Source: a virus (taxonomy: Duplodnaviria > Heunggongvirae > Uroviricota > Caudoviricetes). Taken from it: a DNA stretch of 7,839 bases. Shown in pieces: positions 1-7,839 of the stretch. The notes under the pieces were generated by a model. It did no database searches. It saw only the letters and a program-made list of their open reading frames with translations, and had not been told where the DNA came from. The stretch's first letter is position 1; each line of letters opens with the position of its first letter. The position numbers and the translations under genes were made by a program. The DNA is taken from positions 1 through 7,839 of IMG/VR virus record IMGVR_UViG_2690315922_000017; one strand, written 5' to 3'.

Positions 1-57
1 TTAAAATTCCATTTGTATTTGTTCAGAACGCTCGGTCTTGCACACCGGGCGTTTTTT
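1..57 (+). ncRNA. OOP-like antisense RNA, 3' portion with intrinsic terminator (5' end and promoter lie beyond the window start)
   Basis: Plus-strand hairpin CGCTCGGT(29-36)/ACCGGGCG(44-51) with one G-U pair and a 7-nt loop, followed by TTTTTTATT (52-60). The segment GTTCAGAACGCTCGG...CCGGGCGTTTTTTATT closely resembles my recollection of the 3' end of phage lambda OOP RNA, and it lies antisense to the 3' end of cII exactly as OOP does in lambda. Confidence 0.5.
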
Positions 58-300
58 ATTGGTGAGTCCATCAAGCGCATACTTAAAAGCCCTGCTAATC
101 GGACTGATGTCTGATGCCATTCCAAAAGCACACAAGACCGAAGCAATAAATCTCCAGTCCGTTCTGCTTATCTTCGATTCATGACAGCCAATCATCTTTG
201 CCAGACCGCGCTGGGTAAGCGTTGACAGGTTGATGAGTAAATCTGTTTCTGCGCGATCAACGTCGCGCTGTGATAGTTTGCTGTAACTTGTTTGTTCCAT
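1..300 (-). CDS. cII: CII-like transcriptional activator (lysogeny establishment)
   Basis: Minus-strand ORF of 99 aa with ATG at 300. The C-terminus ...TNKKRPVCKTERSEQIQMEF and the HTH-like centre (...ESKISRTDW...) match recalled lambda CII (...TNKKRPAATERSEQIQMEF). It sits downstream of cro and nutR on the pR transcript. Confidence 0.85.
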   Translation of the reverse strand: MEQTSYSKLSQRDVDRAETDLLINLSTLTQRGLAKMIGCHESKISRTDWRFIASVLCAFGMASDISPISRAFKYALDGLTNKKRPVCKTERSEQIQMEF

Positions 301-310
301 TTCTTATGAT
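278..310 (+). promoter_or_regulatory. pRE-like CII-dependent promoter: TTGC(278-281)-N6-TTGT(288-291) flanking a poor -35, with -10 TATGAT (305-310)
   Basis: The direct tetranucleotide repeat lies inside cII codons 2-8 on the opposite strand and ends 9 nt from the cII start codon complement, the same geometry as the lambda CII site. A 17-bp spacer leads to TATGAT, which would drive plus-strand transcription antisense to cro and towards cI. Confidence 0.4.
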
Positions 311-328
311 TTCCAATAGTGAATATTA

Positions 329-350
329 CGCATCTGTTGATGCGTTTTTT
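329..350 (+). terminator. Hairpin plus T6 on the plus strand (possible attenuator of pRE transcript); function uncertain
   Basis: CGCATC(329-334), loop TGTT, GATGCG(339-344), then TTTTTT(345-350). On the minus strand the hairpin is preceded rather than followed by the homopolymer run, so it is terminator-like only for plus-strand RNA. Confidence 0.3.
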
Positions 351-352
351 GT

Positions 353-390
353 GGGGACGAATCATCCCCGACCTGATTGTTTAAAGAGCG
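353..390 (-). promoter_or_regulatory. nutR (boxA CGCTCTTTAA + boxB hairpin GGGGATGATTCGTCCCC) for N-dependent antitermination
   Basis: Read on the minus strand: boxA-like CGCTCTTTAA (390->381), an 11-nt spacer, then a 17-nt hairpin (369->353) identical to the hairpin at nutL. It lies between cro and cII, as in lambda. Confidence 0.6.
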
Positions 391-397
391 GTGTTAC

Positions 398-622
398 TTA
401 TGCTGCCTGATTCGGTTTTGGAAACAGGTGTGGCAAATCGGGGCGAATTTCGTAAGCCTTGATCTGCCCTCCAGTGGCGTTAACGATGGCGGTAACTTTC
501 TCTGGAGAGACCAACCCGCCTTTCAGCCATTTGTGTACTGCTGGCTGCGTTACACCACACTTGTCGGCAAGGCGTTTTTGGCTACCGACAATTTTCAAGG
601 CTCGTTGAATTACTAAATTCAT
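398..622 (-). CDS. cro: Cro-like repressor, YdaS-type HTH (Cro/CI superfamily)
   Basis: Minus-strand ORF. The preferred start is the ATG at 622 because AAGAGG sits 7 nt upstream; the ORF-track start at 643 and the Met at 628 have no usable SD. The HTH segment ...GSQKRLADKCGVTQPAVHKWLKG...ATGGQIKAYEIRPD resembles recalled E. coli Rac prophage YdaS. It is first on the pR transcript, divergent from cI. Confidence 0.8.
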   Translation of the reverse strand: MNLVIQRALKIVGSQKRLADKCGVTQPAVHKWLKGGLVSPEKVTAIVNATGGQIKAYEIRPDLPHLFPKPNQAA

Positions 623-655
623 GAGCATACCTCTTGTGGTCATTACTTATAACCA

Positions 656-726
656 AAGATAACTCAAGTTATAAAAAATAGCAATAACCTTTGTTATTTT
701 ACTTTGGATAACCGTAGTTATAGATT
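656..726. promoter_or_regulatory. oR region with three operators (659-672 ATAACTCAAGTTAT; 684-697 ATAACCTTTGTTAT; 708-721 ATAACCGTAGTTAT), divergent pR and pRM
   Basis: Three 14-bp ATAAC-N4-GTTAT palindromes with 24-25 bp centre spacing. pR on the minus strand: -35 TTGCTA (684->679), 17-bp spacer, -10 TATCTT (661->656). pRM on the plus strand: -35 TTTACT (698-703), 17-bp spacer, -10 TAGATT (721-726), placing +1 at about the cI ATG (leaderless, as in lambda). Confidence 0.6.
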
Positions 727-733
727 TGTGGGT

Positions 734-1441
734 ATGAAAACATTCGCAGAAAGACTAAATGCAGCCATGAGCTCAGCAGGTGTGTCGCAATCACAGCTTG
801 CTGACATGGTTGGAATATCTCAGCCAGCCATACAGAAGATGTCATCCGGTAAAACAAACGGATCTCGCAAGATGGTTGAATTAGCCAATGCTTTAAAAGT
901 ACGCCCTGAATGGCTTAGCTCTGGTATTGGTGAAATGAGGGATGGTACACATGAAGAACCATCCAATGTCCGTGAATCATCTTTAAAAGCTGTGGTATGG
1001 GAAGATATTAAAAGAAACGATGACGAGTTTGTCGCGTTGCCTCTTCTTAACGTTTCGCTTTCAGCTGGAAGCGGTAGCTGCGAGCTAGAGGAATCATCAG
1101 AGTTCTCTTTGGTTTTCAGAAAGTACTATCTGAAAAAGATGGGGGTATCTGAAAGATCAGCCAAGCTAGTTAGGGTTGTAGGGCAAAGCATGGAACCAAC
1201 GCTTCACGACGGAGATGTTGTTGGCGTTAACACACAAGATACCACAATCAGAGATGGTAAAACCTACGCTATTTGCCAGTCTGATTTGTTACGAGTAAAA
1301 ACATTAATCGCCACCCCAACATCGGTGATAATCAGATCAATAAATCGCGAAGAGTACCCAGATGAAGTAATGGATAGAGATGAATTTCATGAAACCGTAA
1401 GGATTATTGGCAGAGTATTCTGGTCGTCTCATAGTTGGTAA
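734..1441 (+). CDS. cI: CI-like prophage repressor (N-terminal HTH, C-terminal LexA/S24-type autopeptidase domain)
   Basis: HTH ...QSQLADMVGISQPAIQKMSSGK..., Ala-Gly cleavage site within LSAGSGS, Ser in GQSMEP and Lys in LRVKTL (S24 Ser/Lys dyad). Start chosen at ATG 734; the ORF-track start at 704 is a TTG inside operator 3. Confidence 0.85.
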   Translation: MKTFAERLNAAMSSAGVSQSQLADMVGISQPAIQKMSSGKTNGSRKMVELANALKVRPEWLSSGIGEMRDGTHEEPSNVRESSLKAVVWEDIKRNDDEFVALPLLNVSLSAGSGSCELEESSEFSLVFRKYYLKKMGVSERSAKLVRVVGQSMEPTLHDGDVVGVNTQDTTIRDGKTYAICQSDLLRVKTLIATPTSVIIRSINREEYPDEVMDRDEFHETVRIIGRVFWSSHSW

Positions 1442-1481
1442 CCGATAATCAGAAGAAGACTTACGGAAGTGCGGAGGGATA

Positions 1482-1778
1482 ATGGAATTTCTGATAGTTC
1501 TTGTTGTTGTTTTGGTCATCATTCTTTTTGTTTTGCTAAGCATTAGCAAAAAGCTATCTCAAATGATTGAACATAGCTCTAATCGCGCAAAAGAAGAAGA
1601 CCATCTAATTGATATAAAAGAGATTCTCTCTGATATAAAAATCACATTAGATGAAATAAAATACACAACAGATCTAATTGAACAGTATAAAATACCAACC
1701 ACAAACGAGAGAAAAGCAATAGATCAATATCGTATTGACTTAGAAATCGACGAAATGCTAAGCAAAAGAAAAGACTAA
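1482..1778 (+). CDS. Small single-pass membrane protein with charged helical C-terminal domain; moron in the rex position (function unknown, candidate exclusion/defence protein)
   Basis: ATG 1482 preceded by GGAGG (1473-1477). N-terminal hydrophobic segment FLIVLVVVLVIILFVLLSI, then a K/E/D/I-rich helical region. About 30% GC by hand count, much lower than flanking genes. It is 40 bp downstream of cI and followed by an intrinsic terminator. Confidence 0.7.
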   Translation: MEFLIVLVVVLVIILFVLLSISKKLSQMIEHSSNRAKEEDHLIDIKEILSDIKITLDEIKYTTDLIEQYKIPTTNERKAIDQYRIDLEIDEMLSKRKD

Positions 1779-1782
1779 AAAC

Positions 1783-1810
1783 ACCCGGCCTCAGCGCCGG
1801 GTTTTCTTTT
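1783..1810 (+). terminator. Rho-independent terminator ending the cI-moron transcription unit
   Basis: Stem ACCCGGC(1783-1789)/GCCGGGT(1796-1802), 6-nt loop, then TTTTCTTTT. The reverse complement also has a T-run, so it may be bidirectional. Confidence 0.7.
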
Positions 1811-1931
1811 CCTGCCGTCCCCCACCCAATCAACCATCCTCATCATAGACAAGCATCAAGCCAAAGGTAGCACCTTCACCCCGCACGCAAGCCTTCAAAC
1901 ACCAATCAATCAGCAACATTTACAAAAATAA

Positions 1932-2017
1932 AATACCTTTGTTATCCATCACTTATAACTTACTTACCACAAAATATAAACTAAGTTATTGACCACACCT
2001 ATAACCTAAGTTATCTT
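1932..2017 (+). promoter_or_regulatory. oL/pL: operator sites (1932-1945 degenerate, 1976-1989 ATAAACTAAGTTAT, 2001-2014 ATAACCTAAGTTAT) and pL -35 TTGACC (1989-1994), -10 TATCTT (2012-2017)
   Basis: Same ATAAC-N4-GTTAT operator family as oR. The promoter uses a 17-bp spacer and the same -10 hexamer as pR, with operators overlapping the -35 and the spacer/-10. It is oriented towards nutL and N. Confidence 0.55.
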
Positions 2018-2062
2018 TAAGCCATCAGCAGGACGCAGGAAGCCAAACGGAACAGATTGGCA

Positions 2063-2101
2063 GGCTCTTTAACATTGATGGAATGGGGATGATTCGTCCC
2101 C
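2063..2101 (+). promoter_or_regulatory. nutL (boxA GCTCTTTAA 2064-2072; boxB hairpin GGGGATGATTCGTCCCC 2085-2101)
   Basis: The boxB 17-mer is identical to the reverse complement of 353-369 (nutR). boxA matches the CGCTCTT(T)A consensus. It lies about 40 nt downstream of the predicted pL start and upstream of N. Confidence 0.6.
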
Positions 2102-2256
2102 ACCAAAGAGAGGTTGGCTTTGGGATTTGATGAATGCGCAGGTCGATGCGCTACCACTTAGCGGTGAGCACCTGCATTTTGGGCAGGATGGATAGCCGCA
2201 ATAAGGGGATCGACACATGACATCAAATCACCAAAGTCAATCATCGGAGGTATCCA

Positions 2257-2463
2257 GTGAAAGCAAGAGAGATTCGCAAACTCGAACGCGCTCGTAAGCA
2301 CAAAGAGGCGACAGCAAAACGTAAAAATATTGACCGTGTTTCAATGGTGGTTTCGCTAGCAGGAGCGAATAGGAAGAAGGTTGAATGTGGTTCGTGCTGC
2401 CTGCCAAACGTAGCCATTTACGCGGCAGGCTACCGGAAATCAAAACAACTGACGGCGAGGTGA
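2257..2463 (+). CDS. N: N-like transcription antitermination protein (arginine-rich motif at N-terminus)
   Basis: GTG start at 2257 with GGAGG (2246-2250) 6 nt upstream; an in-frame stop at 2218-2220 precludes a longer ORF. N-terminal ARM KAREIRKLERARKHKEATAKRK. The C-terminal ...IDRV..SLAG..K.VE.GS..LP.VA.YAAG.RKSKQ.TAR resembles my recollection of P22 gene 24 (N). Confidence 0.7.
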   Translation: MKAREIRKLERARKHKEATAKRKNIDRVSMVVSLAGANRKKVECGSCCLPNVAIYAAGYRKSKQLTAR

Positions 2464-2484
2464 CGATCTCCCGCCGTCGAGGCA

Positions 2485-3024
2485 CTAAATTAACTCATCA
2501 GCTTTACCAGCAAAGCGCATATAACACTCATGGAACCAGACGTCAGGTATAACAAATTTCTCTTTACCTGACGCGCTGTAAGTCACACCTGAGCGATGGA
2601 GAAGGCCTTTTCTCATAAGAGATAAAGCGACCGGATCGCCGTGCTTAAGTACGATTTTGTTATTTGCCATAACAGCAAATGCTAAAACCTCTTTTTCCTG
2701 AATACTCAGAGAATTGAACAGGCGCTCAGTCTCCACAATTACTTTAGCTTCATCTCTCTTACTGAGATATTTTTTATATCTTTCTGAAGATGCCAGAAAG
2801 ATAAACTCCATCACCCTGTTCAGAACATAACTGATACACAAAAGCATTGCGTAATACATCCAGTGTTCTGGAAGTATTTCAGGGTTCCTTATATCTACCC
2901 ACTCTTTAATTGATGCTGGGGTGATTATTATCAAGGCAATTAAAATAATAAGCATATGAATTAACTGTTGTAGCGTAAGACCACGCAGGAAGAAACGTAA
3001 TAGTTCCTGCCACCAGTTACTCAT
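2485..3024 (-). CDS. sieB: SieB-like superinfection exclusion (abortive infection) membrane protein
   Basis: Minus-strand ORF of 179 aa with ATG at 3024 and GGAG 8-11 nt upstream. The MSNWWQELLRFF N-terminus is followed by two hydrophobic helices. It is oriented opposite to N and immediately downstream of it, as sieB is in lambda and P22. AT-rich. Confidence 0.7.
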   Translation of the reverse strand: MSNWWQELLRFFLRGLTLQQLIHMLIILIALIIITPASIKEWVDIRNPEILPEHWMYYAMLLCISYVLNRVMEFIFLASSERYKKYLSKRDEAKVIVETERLFNSLSIQEKEVLAFAVMANNKIVLKHGDPVALSLMRKGLLHRSGVTYSASGKEKFVIPDVWFHECYMRFAGKADELI

Positions 3025-3039
3025 CGGTGAATCTCCATC

Positions 3040-3090
3040 ATTCTCTCTGTAGGGGTGAATAGAGTTTATCCGATTTCTCGCTGTAGGGGT
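3040..3090. repeat. Direct repeat pair TCTCnCTGTAGGGGT (3042-3056 and 3076-3090) upstream of sieB
   Basis: Two copies match at 14 of 15 positions, 34 bp apart, 18-66 bp upstream of the sieB start codon on the minus strand. Confidence 0.6.
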
Positions 3091-3150
3091 ACACGAGAAC
3101 CACCGAGCCTGATGTGGTTAAAAGACAGGCATACGAATAAACACTGCACT

Positions 3151-3178
3151 GTGTATTCATTCCAACGAGTGAATACAC
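3151..3178. repeat. Perfect 9-bp inverted repeat GTGTATTCA-N10-TGAATACAC
   Basis: Arms at 3151-3159 and 3170-3178 in the sieB-cIII intergenic region. Possible protein-binding palindrome or RNA hairpin. Confidence 0.6.
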
Positions 3179-3240
3179 GGAGCAATGTCGATCGTAACTA
3201 AACAGGAGCCGACTTGTTCTGATCATTGGAAATCTTCTTT

Positions 3241-3265
3241 GCCCTCCTGTGTGAGGGCCTTTTTA
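3241..3265 (+). terminator. tL1-like intrinsic terminator within the pL operon upstream of cIII
   Basis: Stem GCCCTC(3241-3246)/GAGGGC(3253-3258), loop CTGTGT, then CTTTTTAT. The reverse complement has no T-run, so it is plus-strand specific. Confidence 0.4.
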
Positions 3266-3327
3266 TATGCATACCAATAACGTTTCACTCGAGGCGTTTT
3301 TCGTTATGTATAAATAAGGAGCACACC

Positions 3328-3468
3328 ATGCAATATGCCATTGCAGGGTGGCCTGTTGCTGGCTGCCCTTCCGAATCTTTACTTGAACGAATCACCCGTA
3401 AATTACGTGACGGGTGGAAACGCCTTATCGACATACTTAATCAGCCAGGAGTTCCCCAAAATGGATAA
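3328..3468 (+). CDS. cIII: CIII (FtsH inhibitor stabilising CII)
   Basis: ATG 3328 with AAGGAG 6-7 nt upstream. The 46-aa product MQYAIAGWPVAGCPSESLLERITRKLRDGWKRLIDILNQPGVPQNG is near-identical to recalled lambda CIII. The ORF-track start at 3226 is an unsupported N-terminal extension. Confidence 0.8.
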   Translation: MQYAIAGWPVAGCPSESLLERITRKLRDGWKRLIDILNQPGVPQNG

Positions 3469-3574
3469 AACACTTATGGCTATCCAGACTAAATTCACTA
3501 TCGCAACTTTTATTGGCGATGAAAAGATGTTTCGTGAGGCCGTCGAAGCCTACAGGAAATGGAGGTCAAAATGA
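3461..3574 (+). CDS. kil: Kil-like host cell division inhibitor
   Basis: The 37-aa product MDKTLMAIQTKFTIATFIGDEKMFREAVEAYRKWRSK matches recalled lambda Kil (MDQTLMAIQTKFTIATFIGDEKMFREAV...). Its start overlaps the cIII stop by 8 nt. The ORF-track start at 3335 is an out-of-context extension. Confidence 0.75.
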   Translation: MDKTLMAIQTKFTIATFIGDEKMFREAVEAYRKWRSK

Positions 3575-3759
3575 TTCCGGTAGAACTGGCGAAAACTCCA
3601 GAGTTAAGTCGATTAAAAAGAGAATATCACATTGCTGAGGCTCGTTACTGGCGTAAAGCGGGAGATAAATCAAAGAAACAACTTTGTTTATGGCAGGCAC
3701 AAAGAGAGCGCATGAATGAGCGCGAGTTTCTTTCCTCCCCATCCGAATTACCATTCTGA
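3571..3759 (+). CDS. Hypothetical small basic protein (62 aa), translationally coupled to kil
   Basis: ATG 3571 overlaps the kil TGA (ATGA) and has GGAGG (3561-3565) upstream. Product MIPVELAKTPELSRLKREYHIAEARYWRKAGDKSKKQ...; no family recognised. Confidence 0.5.
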   Translation: MIPVELAKTPELSRLKREYHIAEARYWRKAGDKSKKQLCLWQAQRERMNEREFLSSPSELPF

Positions 3760-3767
3760 GGTGAATT

Positions 3768-4475
3768 ATGGATTTGAATAAATTCGATGAGCCATTCAGC
3801 CCCGAAGATATCGAATGGCGAATACAGCAAAGCGGTAAAACACGCGATGGCAAGGTGTGGGCTATGGTGCTGGCTTATGTCACGAACCGGGCAATCATGA
3901 AACGCCTGGACGATGTTTGCGGCAAAGCAGGATGGCGCAATGAATACCGCGATATTCCCAACAACGGCGGAGTTGAATGCGGCATATCAATCAAGATTGA
4001 TTCCGAATGGGTAACCAAATGGGATGCTGCTGAAAACACGCAGGTAGAAGCCGTCAAAGGTGGTCGTTCAGGTGCAATGAAGCGCGCTGCCGTTCAGTGG
4101 GGAATCGGTCGGTATCTGTATAACCTTGAGGAAGGTTTCGCACAAACATCTCTCGATAAAAAGCAGGGGTGGCACAGGGCAAAACTGAAAGATGGAACAG
4201 GATTTTACTGGCTCCCTCCATCGCTGCCGGGATGGGCAATCCCAGCATCAGATAACAAACCATCACCAGAAAATACCAACCAGAAATCTCCATCGGTTGA
4301 CTGCGAACAAATCCTGAAAGACTTCAGCGATTATGCGTCAACAGAAACTGACAAGAAAAAACTCATCGAGCGTTATCAGCGTGACTGGCAATTAATGGCT
4401 GGCAACGAGGAGGCGCAGGCTAAATGCGTTCAGGTAATGAACATCAGAGTTAACGAACTAAAACAGGCGGCATAA
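3768..4475 (+). CDS. Rad52/Sak-family single-strand annealing protein (phage recombinase)
   Basis: Motifs KRLDDVCGKAGWRNEY and GAMKRAAVQWGIGRYLY are typical of Rad52-family phage annealases. GAGGTG SD; stop is immediately followed by the ssb ATG. Confidence 0.75.
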   Translation: MDLNKFDEPFSPEDIEWRIQQSGKTRDGKVWAMVLAYVTNRAIMKRLDDVCGKAGWRNEYRDIPNNGGVECGISIKIDSEWVTKWDAAENTQVEAVKGGRSGAMKRAAVQWGIGRYLYNLEEGFAQTSLDKKQGWHRAKLKDGTGFYWLPPSLPGWAIPASDNKPSPENTNQKSPSVDCEQILKDFSDYASTETDKKKLIERYQRDWQLMAGNEEAQAKCVQVMNIRVNELKQAA

Positions 4476-4991
4476 ATGGCAAGCAGAGGCGTAAATAAGG
4501 TGATCATTATTGGTCGCCTTGGTCATGATCCAGAAATCAGATATTCACCATCAGGAACGGCATTTGCAAACCTTACCGTTGCTACGTCAGAACAATGGTG
4601 TGATAAGCAAACTGGAGAGCAAAAGGAGCAGACGGAGTGGCACCGTGTGGTAATGAGCGGGAAACTGGCAGAAATTGCCAGCGAATATCTGCGAAAAGGT
4701 TCTGAGGTTTATCTTGAAGGCAAATTGCGGACAAGAAAATGGCAAGATCAAAGCGGACAGGATCGGTTCACTACCGAAGTCATCGTGGGCGTTGGTGGAA
4801 CCATGCAAATGCTTGGTGGCAAGCAAGGAGGAAATGAACAGTCTTCTCATCAGCGAAATAACGGTCAGCAACAAAGACAGCAACCTCAGCAGCAAGGGAA
4901 TCACAGCGAACCACCTATGGATTTTGACGACGATATCCCCTTTGCACCAGTAACTCTCCCCTTCCCTCGTCACGCTATTCACGCAATTTAA
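4476..4991 (+). CDS. ssb: Single-stranded DNA-binding protein SSB, with 15-aa extension beyond the canonical DDDIPF tip
   Basis: N-terminal OB-fold region [23 protein letters not shown]...TEWHRVV...[10 protein letters not shown] closely resembles E. coli SSB, followed by a Q/G-rich linker and ...[11 protein letters not shown], then [15 protein letters not shown] before the TAA. Confidence 0.85.
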
Positions 4992-5004
4992 TCAGGAGAA
5001 AATC

Positions 5005-5301
5005 ATGCCAGCACCTCTGTATGGTGCGGATGACCCGCGCCGCTGTTCCGGCAATTCCATATCGGAGGTGCTGGATAAATTCAGAAAAAACTACGACCGG
5101 ATAATGTCTCTACCGCAGGAAACGAAAGAGGAAAAGAAATTTCGCCACTGTATATGGCTTGCAGAGAAAGAAGAACGAGAGCGAATTTACCAGACATCAA
5201 TCCGACCATTCTGCAAAGCAACATATACCCACTTCCCTGAATATATCGACCCGCGCCTGCGTAATTACCGCTCACGCTATGGCGCTATCAGTAATGACTG
5301 A
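5005..5301 (+). CDS. Hypothetical protein (98 aa)
   Basis: ATG 5005 with AGGAG (4994-4998) 6 nt upstream, same strand and operon context. No family recognised. Confidence 0.55.
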   Translation: MPAPLYGADDPRRCSGNSISEVLDKFRKNYDRIMSLPQETKEEKKFRHCIWLAEKEERERIYQTSIRPFCKATYTHFPEYIDPRLRNYRSRYGAISND

Positions 5302-5311
5302 GGAATTAACA

Positions 5312-5602
5312 ATGAAAACAATGAAGCTAAACATCGACCTCGGAAAATACGTTATTACCGGAACCAAACACGATCTGATTCTTAGCGAAAGAGGAATTAT
5401 CAAAGAAGGCGAGAATGCAGGGAAAGAAACGCTCAGTCGTATCGGTTATTACAGCAAGTTTGAGCATCTGGTTAAAGAGTTATGCAACCGTGAAATCCTG
5501 TTATCTCAGGCGCAGACGCTACAAGATATTCAGCAGCATATCGAAACTTTAGGCATGTCACTTAGCATGGCTATTGACCAGTTCGTTGAGAGTAAATCAT
5601 GA
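5312..5602 (+). CDS. Hypothetical protein (96 aa)
   Basis: ATG 5312 ([17 protein letters not shown]...) with GAGG upstream, 10 nt after the previous stop. The ORF-track start at 5159 overlaps the preceding gene and is unlikely. Confidence 0.55.
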
Positions 5603-5763
5603 GAGGACTTGCATACAATCCCGGCATTCTTCCGGCAGAAATGATTATTCGCCAACGCGTAAAGCCAATGCCATCGAGAGAGGAATTGCTTAAGCGAAAC
5701 TCGTTTCCTTCAGTGAATCAAAACAAATATCTGAATGCAATGTGGCGGAGTGGGAAGAAATGA
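5599..5763 (+). CDS. Small hypothetical protein (54 aa), below ORF-track size cutoff, translationally coupled on both sides
   Basis: ATG 5599 overlaps the upstream TGA (ATGA), and its own stop at 5761-5763 overlaps the next ATG at 5760. Product [54 protein letters not shown]. It fills an otherwise unexplained gap in a tightly packed operon. Confidence 0.35.
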
Positions 5764-6269
5764 AACAAATGTCACTAATTGAGATGGATGGTTTCCTGAA
5801 AGGTAAATGCATACCATGTAATTTAAAGGTTAACGAAACAAACGCTGAATATCTTGTCCGTAAGTTCGGTGAACTTGAATCAAAACTCAACGAGCAGCGT
5901 GAGTATTACGAAGGTGTTATCTCGGATGGAAGTAAGCGCATAGCAGAACTGGAAGCCCGAGAGGTGACTTTGCCAGCAGAGAAATTCTGTCAGGCGGATT
6001 ACCCAGGCATCCTGCTGTGGGCAGAACCCGTTGCTTATATTTTCAAACATCCGGCCGGAAAATTATTCTGGGCTTTGACGGATGAAAGCAATAAAGAACA
6101 ATCGGACGTTATTCCTGTTTATGCCGCCCCTCCAGTGCCAGTAGTACCGGAAGAAAAACCAATGCCTAATCCTCTTAGCATGTACGCGGTTGATGCTGTT
6201 GCCGCTATTGCAGAGGTGAGAGGATGGAACGCCTGCCGTGCAGCCATGCTTAAGGGGGATAAATCATGA
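5760..6269 (+). CDS. Hypothetical protein with predicted coiled-coil segment (169 aa)
   Basis: Start preferred at ATG 5760 (ATGA overlap with the upstream ORF); an alternative in-frame start is at 5742. Helical segment ...[34 protein letters not shown].... Its stop overlaps the next start (ATGA at 6266-6269). Confidence 0.55.
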
Positions 6270-6625
6270 TTAATCGAACCAAACTGGAGCACATCCTCGA
6301 GTATGCCAGGCAGCAGAGGCGCTTTGGCCAGCTTTGTAAAATTCTGCCAGGAGATATGGTTGAAATCGTGGAGATTGCCATGCGTAAGACTGGCAACTCT
6401 CCAGTAACTCCGGATAGTTGGATAAGCTGTAGTGAGCGAATGCCAAATGATGGTCAGCACGTAATTATTTTATGTGATGGTGCATTCGTTCTTTATGCGC
6501 AATATCGAGACGGAGAGTTTTTCGATATTGTCCGCAATGGTGATGAATTTTTCGAAACACAGAGTCGCAATGTAACCGACTGGATGCCTCTACCAGAACC
6601 GCCTCAGGAGGTTAACCGTGGCTAA
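6266..6625 (+). CDS. DUF551-like prophage protein
   Basis: C-terminal pattern W-x-SCSERMP...W-MPLPEPP is recalled as characteristic of DUF551 proteins of enterobacterial prophages. Family assignment is from memory. Confidence 0.55.
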   Translation: MINRTKLEHILEYARQQRRFGQLCKILPGDMVEIVEIAMRKTGNSPVTPDSWISCSERMPNDGQHVIILCDGAFVLYAQYRDGEFFDIVRNGDEFFETQSRNVTDWMPLPEPPQEVNRG

Positions 6626-6902
6626 CCTGCAACTTGCCGTCAAAGGTGAATACTTCGATGCCATGATTCGCGGGGAGAAAACGGAAGAGTATCGCCTGTG
6701 TAATGACTACTGGAATAAGCGAATTATGTTCCGCGAGTATGACCGACTGATTATCACAAAGGGATATCCGAAGCGCGACGATTCCAGCCGCAGAATTGAT
6801 GTTCCGTATGACGGATATGAAATCAAGACAATCACACATCCGCACTTCGGTGATAAACCGGTAAAGGTGTTCGCGATAAAGGTGAATATCGGCAATGAAT
6901 AA
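6618..6902 (+). CDS. ASCH/PUA-like (DUF3850-like) small protein
   Basis: GTG start at 6618 with AGGAGG (6605-6610) upstream, overlapping the preceding gene by 8 nt. The N-terminal KGEYFDAMIRGEKTEEYR resembles the ASCH-domain signature. Family assignment is tentative. Confidence 0.55.
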   Translation: MANLQLAVKGEYFDAMIRGEKTEEYRLCNDYWNKRIMFREYDRLIITKGYPKRDDSSRRIDVPYDGYEIKTITHPHFGDKPVKVFAIKVNIGNE

Positions 6903-6906
6903 CAAT

Positions 6907-6933
6907 CCTCGCACTCGCGGGGATTTCTTTTAT
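6907..6933 (+). terminator. Intrinsic terminator-like hairpin after the ASCH-like gene
   Basis: Stem CCTCGC(6907-6912)/GCGGGG(6917-6922) with one G-U pair, loop ACTC, then ATTTCTTTTAT. Confidence 0.45.
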
Positions 6934-6974
6934 CTGAACTCGCTACGGCGGATTTTGTTTTATGGAGATGATAA

Positions 6975-7142
6975 ATGCACTTCCGAGTCACAGGTGAATG
7001 GAATGGAGAACCATTCAACAGAGTTATCGAAGCAGAGAACATCAATGACTGCTATGACCACTGGATGATATGGGCGCAGATAGCACATGCAGACGTAACC
7101 AATATTCGAATTGAAGAACTGAAAGAACACCAAGCCGCCTGA
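6975..7142 (+). CDS. Small hypothetical protein (55 aa)
   Basis: ATG 6975 with GGAG (6964-6967) 7 nt upstream. Product MHFRVTGEWNGEPFNRVIEAENINDCYDHWMIWAQIAHADVTNIRIEELKEHQAA. Preferred over the overlapping minus-strand ORF 6960..7166, which has no RBS and is antisense to the operon. Confidence 0.4.
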   Translation: MHFRVTGEWNGEPFNRVIEAENINDCYDHWMIWAQIAHADVTNIRIEELKEHQAA

Positions 7143-7169
7143 TGGAGGTTTTTTTATTGGAGACAAGAA

Positions 7170-7514
7170 ATGTCAGATTTGTCTATGAAGGTTTTGAAAT
7201 GGCAATCGACTGGCGATGTCGGCATCAGTAGCGCAACTCTTGCCTCAATCGCATGTGGACTGAAAAAGAATATCTATGGTCATCACTTCGGCGCTCCACA
7301 TGACGCAGCAGACTTCCGGCGATGCGTTGCTCTTGTCGAGCAGATTCCAGAAATCAGAGCTTCATTCGACAAAGTTGCAAAGCGCGTTCCGGCATTCAAA
7401 GGCATCCTCAACGAATGGGATTCCCTCGTTGCTCTGTTGAAGTCTGAAATGAAGATACACGGAAACAAAGCACCAGAGACTTACAGAAGAATCAGCGAGC
7501 TACGCAAGGACTAA
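7170..7514 (+). CDS. Hypothetical protein (114 aa)
   Basis: ATG 7170 with GGAG (7159-7162) upstream. No family recognised. Confidence 0.55.
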   Translation: MSDLSMKVLKWQSTGDVGISSATLASIACGLKKNIYGHHFGAPHDAADFRRCVALVEQIPEIRASFDKVAKRVPAFKGILNEWDSLVALLKSEMKIHGNKAPETYRRISELRKD

Positions 7515-7573
7515 CCACAGCCTCACACTCGATGAGGCCCGTTCATTTCTCAAGATATCCAGACCTACCATTG

Positions 7574-7595
7574 CCGCATCAATGCGGTTTTTTAT
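7574..7595 (+). terminator. Rho-independent terminator upstream of xis
   Basis: Stem CCGCAT(7574-7579)/ATGCGG(7582-7587) with a very tight loop, then TTTTTTATT (7588-7596). Confidence 0.5.
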
Positions 7596-7638
7596 TGCCT
7601 GATTTGCAGGTTCGATTCCCTATTCGGAGATAGCACTC

Positions 7639-7839
7639 ATGCAACACGAACTACAACCTGATTCACTGGTTGATTTGAAATTCATCATGGCCGATACTGG
7701 CTTCGGTAAAACCTTCATCTATGACCGGATTAAGTCCGGCGACCTGCCAAAAGCCAAAGTTATCCACGGGCGAGCAAGATGGTTATATCGTGACCATTGT
7801 GAATTCAAAAATAAGCTCTTAAGCCGCGCCAATGGGTAA
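7639..7839 (+). CDS. xis: Excisionase-like / AlpA-family winged-helix DNA-binding protein
   Basis: ATG 7639 with GGAG (7626-7629) upstream. The 66-aa product has the pattern ...IMADTGFGKTFIYDRIKSGDLPKAKVIHGRARWLYRDHCEFKNKL, typical of phage excisionase/AlpA HTH proteins. It is at the distal end of the pL operon where xis precedes int in lambdoid phages; the window ends at its stop codon. Confidence 0.6.
   Translation: MQHELQPDSLVDLKFIMADTGFGKTFIYDRIKSGDLPKAKVIHGRARWLYRDHCEFKNKLLSRANG

Follow-up and report, generated by a model that had tools for sequence, protein, structure and literature searches.

Among the closest described systems is the abc2-to-xis region of phage HK022, with the family order abc2, DUF2737, Ea22-like, DUF551, ASCH, EaG-like, phrog_1229 and xis. 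Its counterpart stretches are hkaJ-hkaD in HK620 and genes 25-19 in Sf6, the latter with a DUF5405 cassette (gp24) between abc2 and DUF2737. The 'ea' region of P22 (abc2-orf56-eaE-orf45-eaF-eaD-eaI-eaA-eaG) occupies an equal operon position; there, the DUF2737 homologue orf56 starts 10 nt after abc2, and successive small genes overlap by 4 nt and more. The P22 'ea' genes are non-essential accessory genes. In lambda, the equivalent is the under-characterised exo-xis region, an early region driven from pL, in which the mosaic Ea22 genes keep a common N-terminus and coiled coil and exchange their C-terminal domains, and where DUF551 acts as a portable domain (PMC10834534). Conserved inter-gene boundary sequences of HK620 have been proposed as recombination targets (Clark et al. 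2001, as cited in PMC3233612), and boundary-sequence features, named 'bsq', are annotated in the Sf6 record. An account of the co-transfer of interdependent genes in lambdoid phages makes no mention of abc2, Ea22 or the exo-xis region (PMC9836094).

The window, a stretch of 7,839 nucleotides forming positions 1 to 7,839 of the IMG/VR record IMGVR_UViG_2690315922_000017, carries five small genes directly after the recombination genes (Rad52-like annealing protein, SSB and Abc2) and before xis/int. This region aligns with the same stretch in HK022, HK620, Sf6, CUS-3 and APC_JM3.2, and the lambda cIII thermoregulator was found at 3315-3373, which places the five genes on the pL side. It is, as a preliminary description of the DNA had supposed, an early-left accessory region of a lambdoid prophage, lying directly 3' of the anti-RecBCD gene abc2: the 'ea' or exo-xis-type accessory part of the early-left (pL) operon of a P22/HK022/HK620/Sf6-like temperate phage. 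The features are the following.

5005..5301, + strand, abc2 (anti-RecBCD protein 2; PF11043, E=4.5e-60; phrog_656)
5312..5602, + strand, gene 1, 96 aa, DUF5405 (P2 Orf83 / Sf6 gp24 family; PF17399, phrog_154)
5599..5763, + strand, gene 2, 54 aa, DUF2737 (HK620 HkaI, Sf6 gp23, P22 Orf56; PF10930)
5760..6269, + strand, gene 3, 169 aa counted from the ATG, chimeric Ead/Ea22-like, separate PHROGs matching separate segments
6266..6625, + strand, gene 4, 119 aa, DUF551 (PF04448)
6605..6625, + strand, portable junction cassette CAGGAGGTTAACCGTGGCTAA, common to unrelated upstream genes
6618..6902, + strand, gene 5, 94 aa, GTG start, small protein of predicted ASCH fold (phrog_625, E=1.8e-51)
6895-6974, + strand, conserved non-coding linker closing the chain; its terminator-like hairpin (6904-6925) leads into a U-rich tract

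The reading preferred here, to which a probability of roughly 0.8 is given, is that of a mosaic operon, in which independent modules of known families are joined by generic, portable overlap junctions and give products that act separately.

The overlaps themselves can be read directly from the sequence. Five intact ORFs, all on one strand, are joined by three ATGA overlaps (5599-5602, 5760-5763 and 6266-6269) and one 8-nt overlap, GTGGCTAA (6618-6625), in which the GTG start of gene 5 lies over the TAA stop of gene 4. Junctions of the ATGA or GTGA type with at least 50 open codons on each side occur three times in the region, while 2,000 shuffles gave a mean of 0.031 and a maximum of 1, and the overlap chain is far beyond chance. 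Pfam and PHROG profile searches gave a protein-family match for each of the five ORFs, in chain order DUF5405, DUF2737, chimeric Ead/Ea22-like, DUF551 and small ASCH-fold; NCBIfam holds no model matching any of the nine proteins scanned. The preliminary description was right about the four overlaps and their positions, and about genes that are real, co-directional and tightly packed. Its further step, that co-translation is obligate, is not supported. The stop/start overlap of successive cistrons seen throughout the chain is of the kind expected of a translationally coupled operon. A Shine-Dalgarno-like purine run (weak for gene 2) precedes each start, and the folding of the start regions against shuffled sequence gave z values of +1.55, -1.76, +1.88 and +0.60, so that these regions are no more stable than shuffles and there is no indication of sequestration. 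Ribosome-binding runs of their own and unremarkable start structure argue, indirectly, against an obligate translational dependence of each gene on the preceding one.

The same overlap habit is found in P22, Sf6, HK620, P2, a Klebsiella prophage and the Jerseyvirus LSPA1, with different genes in each. HK022 has junctions equal to those of the window (10-nt gap, ATGA overlaps and the 8-nt overlap), and its DUF2737 and ASCH proteins are 100% and 96% identical to those encoded here, although two genes (235 aa and about 122 aa) stand in place of the single 169-aa chimera. P22, with its equal position and parallel layout, differs in most individual genes, and its abc1 and erf take the place of the SSB and Rad52-like genes of the window. 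Gene 1 is absent from HK022, HK620 and P22.

Signals that could divide the chain are weak. A consensus scan of 5312-6902 gave one weak promoter-like site (9/12 matches, 6075-6102, within gene 3) and one weak terminator-like site with a five-pair stem (6017-6031). The only strong hairpin is the one just after the stop of gene 5 (RNA fold -15.1 kcal/mol, z=-3.09), which belongs to the 80-nt conserved block 6895-6974; this block is found with several different genes upstream and downstream and has no coding signature. An ORF at 6895-7068 has an 8-nt overlap between its ATG and the stop of gene 5, and might have been a sixth link; it was rejected, being open over the conserved block in only 38 of 81 alleles, with no codon-position bias. 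An antisense ORF at 6612-6914 was also weighed as a real gene and rejected.

Gene 1 scores 25.6 bits against PF17399 (cut-off 21.6) and matches phrog_154 with E=6.8e-33; it is 98% identical to Sf6 gp24, and its pN/pS is 0.03-0.09. In HK022, DUF2737 is directly preceded by the same ribosome-binding region that stands before gene 1 here, and gene 1 is an optional cassette, inserted cleanly and exactly at the ATG that otherwise starts DUF2737. Its AF2 model (pLDDT 89) predicts a four-strand beta-meander and two helices, with no convincing match in the PDB, and a PDB sequence search with genes 1, 4 and 5 returned nothing meaningful. P2 Orf83, which is 34% identical to gene 1 over 92% of its length, is also a small early-operon gene overlapping its neighbours, although its neighbours in P2 are a DksA/TraR-type zinc-finger gene on one side and replication gene A on the other, and DUF2737 is absent there. 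No support was found for the label 'replication initiation protein', which phrog_154 and some RefSeq records attach to this family, and it was set aside; the P2 RefSeq record gives that name to Orf81 and lists Orf83 simply as DUF5405.

Gene 2 had been presented in the preliminary description as an unlisted 54-aa ORF, a status due only to the ORF length cut-off applied there. Its coding nature stands, its novelty does not. It matches PF10930 with 107.7 bits (cut-off 25; E=2.6e-31) at full length, over residues 1-52 against a profile of 53 positions, and shares 100% identity with HK620 HkaI and 75% with P22 Orf56. Against P22 orf56, pN/pS is 0.22 with pS=0.74, and among 121 alleles the variable columns are distributed over the codon positions as 27/27/42, most of them at the third. 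These substitution patterns argue that the ORF is a real gene under purifying selection. NCBI routinely annotates its homologues as 'DUF2737 family protein', and the HK620 record already names the identical protein hkaI.

Gene 3 is a chimera, made up of an Ea22-type N-terminus, a short coiled-coil segment, a rare linker and a C-terminal domain from a different gene. Over residues 1-65 it shares 97% identity with the N-terminus of HK022 p35, an 'ead/Ea22-like family protein', whereas the match of residues 86-169, at 95% identity, is to the C-terminal end of the ORF that comes next in HK022; the C-terminal half matches PHROGs 6847 and 5117. None of 404 loci gives a contiguous match of at least 90% identity across the gene, and only three of them cover 5960-5990. 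The score against Ead_Ea22 (PF13935) is 21.1 bits, below the cut-off of 27 and confined to residues 33-65. Taking into account this low score together with the 97% identity over residues 1-65, gene 3 shares the N-terminal module and is not a full member of the family. Its match to lambda Ea22 is limited to the N-terminal and coiled-coil part, its C-terminal domain coming from a different gene family. A GTG at 5742 was considered as its start and set aside for the ATG at 5760, because protein homology starts there in 135 contexts with the ATGA junction and the HK022 RefSeq record uses the same start.

The DUF551 assignment of gene 4, tentative until now, is solid: residues 51-114 cover the whole 68-position profile of PF04448 with 73.3 bits (cut-off 22, E=3.1e-20). 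The edges of this gene are conserved and its core is variable, with breakpoints near 6390, 6440 and 6570-6615; it is 63% identical to its HK022 counterpart, from which it differs in the DUF551 core, the N- and C-terminal ends being alike. Its last codons (...QEVNRG) come from the junction cassette of the gene that follows.

Gene 5 belongs to a group whose members NCBI names 'ASCH domain-containing protein', and it had been given a tentative ASCH/PUA-like fold before. Its score against ASCH (PF04266) is 14.3 bits, below the cut-off of 21.2 (E=0.068), over residues 6-28 only. The AF2 model has a pLDDT of 79.8, with two of five models confident, and in a Foldseek search against the PDB the 14 best matches were all of ASCH type (2z0t, 3iuw, 1xne, 5gus and 9kyh), with probability up to 0.98, TM 0.42-0.58 and E values of 0.03 or worse. 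An N-terminal GxKxxExR is the ASCH signature. In gene 5, G19, K21, E24 and R26 are present, and are invariant in 34 homologues; pN/pS is 0.09. The predicted beta-barrel-like fold has its best PDB matches in the ASCH superfamily (E. coli YqfB, Zymomonas ZmASCH and PH0355), from which gene 5 differs in being shorter, at 94 aa, and in its low sequence HMM score. This modelling is supportive of an ASCH or PUA-like fold but not decisive.

The junction in front of gene 5 is the most instructive. The cassette CAGGAGGTTAACCGTGGCTAA contains the Shine-Dalgarno sequence AGGAGG, the GTG start of ASCH and a stop codon for the upstream gene. It is present in seven of ten representative upstream gene clusters, the sequence further upstream being unrelated, and across the ten clusters identity climbs sharply about 14 nt upstream of the GTG. 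Unrelated proteins upstream of ASCH all end in QEVNRG. Whatever gene precedes them, the ribosome-binding site and start of ASCH rewrite its final six codons as QEVNRG. The boundary between genes 4 and 5 has the form that the boundary-sequence model (HK620, Sf6 'bsq') describes, with a conserved sequence before ASCH and unrelated genes upstream of it. Elsewhere the chain departs from the model: breakpoints are also found inside genes 3 and 4, and the boundary of gene 1 is no more than the ATG(A) itself. For the breakpoints of genes 1, 3 and 4, illegitimate recombination followed by selection would fit equally well.

The distribution of the genes bears on the choice between the mosaic operon and a single system. 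In the phage records, 80% or more of 5000-7200 is nowhere present in one place. Of 5,426 complete E. coli genomes, 3,459 match parts of the block, and none reaches 80% of 5312-6902; among 319 IMG/VR loci, the highest coverage of the block is 1262 of 1591 nt (79%). Homology breakpoints cluster at 5315, 5595, 5745, 5870-5885, 5950-5960, 6250, 6390, 6440, 6570-6615 and 6895. Among the matches listed, DUF2737 is preceded either by abc2 with the 10-nt gap (107 contexts) or by DUF5405 with the ATGA overlap (87), and at least 18 families occur on its downstream side, where 178 of 211 contexts show a 4-nt overlap; likewise, ASCH has at least 13 upstream gene families among the matches listed, and the 8-nt overlap in 86 of 109 contexts. 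The conserved co-occurrence and synteny expected of a multi-gene system were not found, as no record holds the block and its members have many neighbour families. The overlaps belong to the junctions and not to particular gene pairs, and the five ORFs are independent, individually selected modules of known families. Since these families are catalogued and are swapped independently, the overlaps represent compact operon packing and not a five-protein machine. The loci sampled were the best 80 per scan and are close relatives, mostly more than 90% identical for the anchor gene; with such sampling, some linkage together with some diversity reflects recent shared ancestry and the sampling itself.

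Taking the mosaic operon as the working model, one long antiterminated transcript would carry all five genes, and the stop/start overlaps, whether ATGA or GTGGCTAA, would keep the operon compact. Ribosomes ending one gene would probably reinitiate on the next, smoothing the expression of whichever module happens to sit downstream. The exchange of modules between phages takes place at start codons or close to them, as well as within genes 3 and 4, and the short conserved junction sequences travel with the downstream gene. Judging by the independent distribution of the genes, separate action of their products is most likely; they would modulate host physiology, the lysis-lysogeny decision or host defences without being essential.

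One or more of the modules alone could be an anti-defence or host-takeover factor, for instance ASCH acting on modified cytidine or RNA, or DUF551 acting on replication or stress pathways. The accessory region is the site of abc2 in this DNA and of ral, kil and gene 17 in relatives, and the rapid turnover of modules, together with the hypervariable DUF551 core, fits arms-race genes. The predicted fold of ASCH is similar to those of ZmASCH and of the N4-acetylcytidine amidohydrolase YqfB; for YfdS, a DUF551 protein, a stress phenotype is reported, and its overexpression contributes to the inhibition of replication initiation (PMC4776307); and lambda Ea22 is pro-lysogenic (PMC10834534). However, no experimental or homology link joins any of the five proteins to a characterised anti-defence protein, the ASCH fold match is modest (E about 0.03, TM about 0.55), and literature searches, including one for ASCH linked to anti-defence, returned nothing specific. 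Such a role is conceivable for some module, and we regard it as somewhat doubtful.

Less probable is a small unit at the promoter-proximal end, in which DUF2737 would work with Abc2 or the recombination module, DUF5405 being an adaptor that is optional, for example in RecBCD modification or recombination-dependent replication. The gene abc2 is the last of the recombination module, separated from gene 1 by the 10-nt gap, and its product is 90% identical to P22 Abc2, so that P22 keeps the pair of abc2 and DUF2737 (90% and 75% identity). Among the matches listed, abc2 is followed by DUF2737, directly or through DUF5405, in all 70 distinct abc2-anchored contexts, and DUF5405 is followed by DUF2737 in 89 of 90; the phage collection holds full-length abc2 in 224 records and full-length DUF2737 in 223, a comparison of totals and not of co-occurrence record by record. 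Furthermore, the P2 DUF5405 gene adjoins replication gene A. These two strict linkages in the sample leave room for a small functional unit within the chain. However, they may reflect mere physical adjacency across 10 nt in a narrow and recently diverged lineage. In the phage collection, the match to the 98-aa abc2 protein lies almost wholly within temperate phages of Salmonella, E. coli and Shigella (a search of genome contigs for abc2 gave six loci, too few for use). In Jerseyvirus, the DUF2737 core is present with no abc2 annotated in the 4.25-kb stretch examined, DUF5405 homologues at 64%, 43% and 34% identity have no adjoining DUF2737, and Orf56 is unmentioned in a published account of Abc2 action (PMC12315714). 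DUF5405 to DUF2737 and abc2 to DUF2737 are the only tight links of the chain, and both break in more distant phages. A looser version is equally improbable, namely that DUF2737 would be either a partner of the Abc2 module, with DUF5405 as adaptor, or, acting on its own, a small inhibitor of some host factor for defence or repair, while in parallel ASCH would be a stand-alone enzyme for modified cytidine or RNA.

The preliminary description had taken the five genes for one obligately co-translated complex or pathway, possibly of anti-restriction or anti-defence function, a very improbable reading that has in its favour four consecutive stop/start overlaps, genes on one strand with internal promoter and terminator consensus matches that are only weak, and the vicinity of known host-takeover genes such as abc2, but against it a block conserved in none of the phage records, E. 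coli genomes or IMG/VR loci examined, members with many alternative neighbours and an unchanged junction type, internally chimeric genes 3 and 4, relatives (HK022, HK620 and P22) without gene 1, start regions with no sign of the occlusion that obligate coupling implies, and a PADLOC-DB search of the five proteins with no match at E <=0.01. A lack of conserved synteny across prophages had been named in that description as counting against its own proposal, and on this ground the five-protein complex is largely refuted.

In sum, the finding is an ordinary one, of known and already catalogued families, and a tidy chain of overlapping prophage genes should not be read as a protein complex: overlaps in such phages are junctions of a modular operon, generic and portable. 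The cassette before ASCH offers a worked example of how a downstream ribosome-binding site and start rewrite the C-terminus of an upstream gene, which is useful for annotating such regions and for interpreting 'conserved' C-terminal tails. Prophages of E. coli and Salmonella very commonly encode DUF2737, DUF5405, DUF551 and small ASCH proteins, which merit gene-by-gene study.

Five intact + strand ORFs are joined between 5312 and 6902 at exactly the positions given in the preliminary description, and a catalogued family match was obtained for every one of them in Pfam and PHROG searches. Direct reading of the sequence places ATGA overlaps at 5599-5602, 5760-5763 and 6266-6269, and at 6618-6625 the GTG start of gene 5 and the TAA stop of gene 4 have 8 nt in common (GTGGCTAA). 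The chain and its neighbours, with the Shine-Dalgarno-like purine run found before each start of the chain, are as follows.

5005-5301, upstream of the chain: abc2, P22 anti-RecBCD protein 2 (PF11043, E=4.5e-60)
5312-5602, +: gene 1, 96 aa, DUF5405 (PF17399 above threshold; phrog_154, E=7e-33); GAGGA
5599-5763, +: gene 2, 54 aa, DUF2737 (PF10930, E=2.6e-31); GAGAG, weak
5760-6269, +: gene 3, 169 aa, several PHROGs on separate segments, Ead/Ea22 match sub-threshold; GGAG/GGGAAG
6266-6625, +: gene 4, 119 aa, DUF551 (E=3e-20); AAGGGGG
6618-6902, +: gene 5, 94 aa, phrog_625 (E=2e-51), Pfam ASCH match sub-threshold; AGGAGG
6975-7142, downstream of the chain: EaG-like gene, related to P22 EaG

This chain is not due to chance, since the region contains three ATGA-type junctions flanked on both sides by 50 or more open codons, against a mean of 0.031 and a maximum of 1 in 2,000 shuffles.

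As the window also carries cI, cro, cIII with its thermoregulator, a Rad52-like annealing protein, SSB and, at the window end, an AlpA/Xis-like gene, the chain can be assigned from gene content to the accessory part of the early-left operon, called 'ea' in P22 and exo-xis in lambda. The thermoregulator (Lambda_thermo, Rfam RF01804) lies at 3315-3373 (88.5 bits, E=3.7e-21), preceding the cIII gene that ends at 3468, and this match confirms the identity of the pL operon. The DNA aligns piecewise with the corresponding stretch in HK022, HK620, Sf6, CUS-3, APC_JM3.2 and many Stx phages. In annotated records, the counterparts of gene 2 are HK620 HkaI (100% identical), Sf6 gp23 and P22 Orf56 (75% identical), and that of gene 1 is Sf6 gp24, whose record bears the note 'similar to P2 Orf83'. 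The label 'replication initiation protein' that DUF5405 genes bear in phrog_154 and several RefSeq phage records is apparently unsupported and propagated; in the P2 RefSeq record this name belongs to Orf81, and Orf83 (2501-2776 of the P2 locus) is plain DUF5405.

The placement in an accessory region is the part of the earlier interpretation that stood. It had also been proposed that the overlaps imply obligate co-translation and, probably, a functional complex or pathway, and this is not supported and, on the condition that the proposal itself had set, is refuted: conserved synteny across prophages is absent, and the neighbours vary. Loci were collected from IMG/VR with genes 1, 2, 4, 5 and abc2 as separate anchors (319 at the first block-level check and about 400 overall, identical contexts being entered once). 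At least 80% of 5000-7200 was found in one place in no phage record, and at least 80% of 5312-6902 in none of 5,426 E. coli genomes; the best of the 319 IMG/VR loci covered 1262 of the 1591 nt of the block. Few loci contain all five families, and in them the alleles of genes 3 and 4 are distant and extra genes lie between. Homology breaks at the junctions (5315, 5595, 5745, 6250, 6570-6615 and 6895) and also within genes 3 and 4 (5870-5885, 5950-5960, 6390 and 6440). The five-gene block is not conserved.

The junctions themselves are portable. Upstream of ASCH at least 13 gene families were found, with the same 8-nt overlap in 86 of 109 contexts, and 18 families follow DUF2737, overlapping it by 4 nt in 178 of 211. 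Unrelated proteins encoded upstream of ASCH share the C-terminal end ...QEVNRG, and across the upstream-gene clusters DNA identity jumps about 14 nt 5' of the ASCH GTG, within a shared stretch:

6605-6625: ASCH junction cassette, CAGGAGGTTAACCGTGGCTAA, comprising the Shine-Dalgarno, the ASCH start and the stop of the upstream gene

Thus, the 8-nt overlap comes with the ASCH gene, as part of the cassette from which its translation starts, and is joined to any gene lying upstream, in agreement with the notion of a 'boundary sequence' put forward for HK620; the Sf6 record marks such features 'bsq'. Many ASCH homologues (P0121, P0129, P0137 and others) are annotated at 108-114 aa, versus 94 aa here, which suggests that in other genomes starts are called 5' of the conserved GTG/ATG junction. 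At the other end of the chain, ...ctgaggaatttaccATGagagga of HK022 runs directly into DUF2737; in the window, ...ctgaggaattaacaATGaaaaca runs into DUF5405, and DUF2737 begins at the next ATGA. Gene 1 is a clean optional cassette, and the gene before DUF2737 is DUF5405 in 87 contexts and abc2, across a 10-nt gap, in 107. Tight overlaps are the norm and join entirely different genes in P22, Sf6, HK620, P2, a Klebsiella prophage and Jerseyvirus LSPA1.

Nor does the coupling appear to be obligate. Given that each start has its own Shine-Dalgarno-like run and that the start regions show no excess of structure over shuffled sequence (z = +1.55, -1.76, +1.88 and +0.60), nothing indicates that starts are occluded pending upstream translation. 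Reinitiation by terminating ribosomes is likely at overlapping cistrons in general, and would likely occur at those of the chain. A consensus scan of 5312-6902 gave two weak sites only, both within gene 3, and the sole strong hairpin lies beyond the chain.

6017-6031: terminator-like site, weak, five-pair stem, inside gene 3
6075-6102: promoter-like match, weak (9/12), inside gene 3
6904-6925, followed by a U tract: terminator-like hairpin, stable (z=-3.09), directly 3' of the ASCH stop

The non-coding 80-nt linker just 3' of the ASCH stop (6895-6974), in which the hairpin at 6904-6925 lies, is conserved more widely than the flanking genes and is found with several different genes upstream and downstream; it may be a pL-operon terminator, a processing site or a recombination boundary. 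A 57-aa ORF (6895-7068, +), which starts with an ATG in an 8-nt overlap with the ASCH stop, was considered as a sixth link and rejected as a gene: it is open across 6895-6974 in only 38 of 81 alleles, shows neither codon-position bias nor a match to any family, and runs into the real EaG-like gene. Similarly, an antisense 100-aa ORF (6612-6914, -) matching phrog_20945 (E=8.5e-65) is a shadow ORF of ASCH, with pN/pS of 2.12 versus 0.09 in the ASCH frame and stops in 17 of 80 alleles; phrog_20945 is probably a collection of misannotated genes.

The 54-aa ORF, gene 2, is genuine: in the comparison with P22 orf56, pN is 0.16 and pS 0.74 (near saturation), a ratio of 0.22, and variation among 121 alleles is greatest at third codon positions. 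It is already known, not novel. PF10930 was found on all 120 clusters listed (139 matched in a large protein collection), and those among them with source names are almost all 'DUF2737 family protein'. The family is narrow, occurring in Escherichia, Salmonella and Shigella prophages, with a related core in Jersey-type Salmonella phages.

Regarding the other products, gene 3 is a chimera of parts of two HK022 genes, which lie within 2966-4040 of the HK022 locus. Its residues 1-65 correspond to the N-terminus of the HK022 Ea22-like protein (the module extends 65-70 residues) and its residues 86-169 (the C-terminal 84) to the end of the HK022 ORF that follows; the linker between them is rare, 5960-5990 being present in only 3 of 404 loci. 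Such a make-up agrees with the published view of Ea22 proteins, in which a common N-terminus and coiled coil carry swapped C-terminal domains (PMC10834534). In gene 4 the edges (about 6390-6440 and 6570-6615) are widely shared and the core between them (6440-6560) is far more variable; a binding surface under diversifying selection could account for this. What hints there are of a DUF551 function concern E. coli YfdS only, for which an H2O2 sensitivity phenotype is reported and which, on overexpression, contributes to inhibiting replication initiation (PMC4776307). The gene 1 AF2 model is confident (pLDDT 89), with two long helices after a four-strand beta-meander, and structure searches returned no convincing relative. 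For gene 5 (AF2 pLDDT 79.8, with two of the five models confident), a predicted ASCH fold is supported by its 14 best PDB matches, all ASCH-type (PH0355, 3iuw, PF0470, ZmASCH and the E. coli ac4C amidohydrolase YqfB; TM 0.42-0.58, probability up to 0.98, but E only about 0.03), and by the invariance of G19, K21, E24 and R26 among homologues, whose spacing fits the ASCH signature, GxKxxExR. PADLOC defence models matched none of the chain's proteins.

Two linkages, of DUF5405 and of abc2 to DUF2737, do hold. In 89 of 90 contexts the gene after DUF5405 is DUF2737, and abc2 leads on to DUF2737, either immediately or with DUF5405 in between, in all 70 distinct contexts (5005-5763 in the window; loci L324-L407); full-length abc2 and DUF2737 occur in 224 and 223 records of the phage collection. 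Both linkages fail at greater distance. No DUF2737 adjoins P2 Orf83 (34% identical to gene 1) or a Providencia homologue (43%), a Klebsiella homologue (64%) is followed by an unrelated 235-aa gene with a 4-nt overlap, and for Jerseyvirus LSPA1, which carries a DUF2737 gene, the 4.25-kb stretch examined contains no annotated abc2. Because of these failures in distant relatives, a functional Abc2-DUF2737 pair, linked to the anti-RecBCD module, is a low-probability lead. In sum, the modules are known ones, newly combined as a mosaic in a region of a well-described kind, and the Abc2-DUF2737 association is the one lead deserving a cheap experiment.
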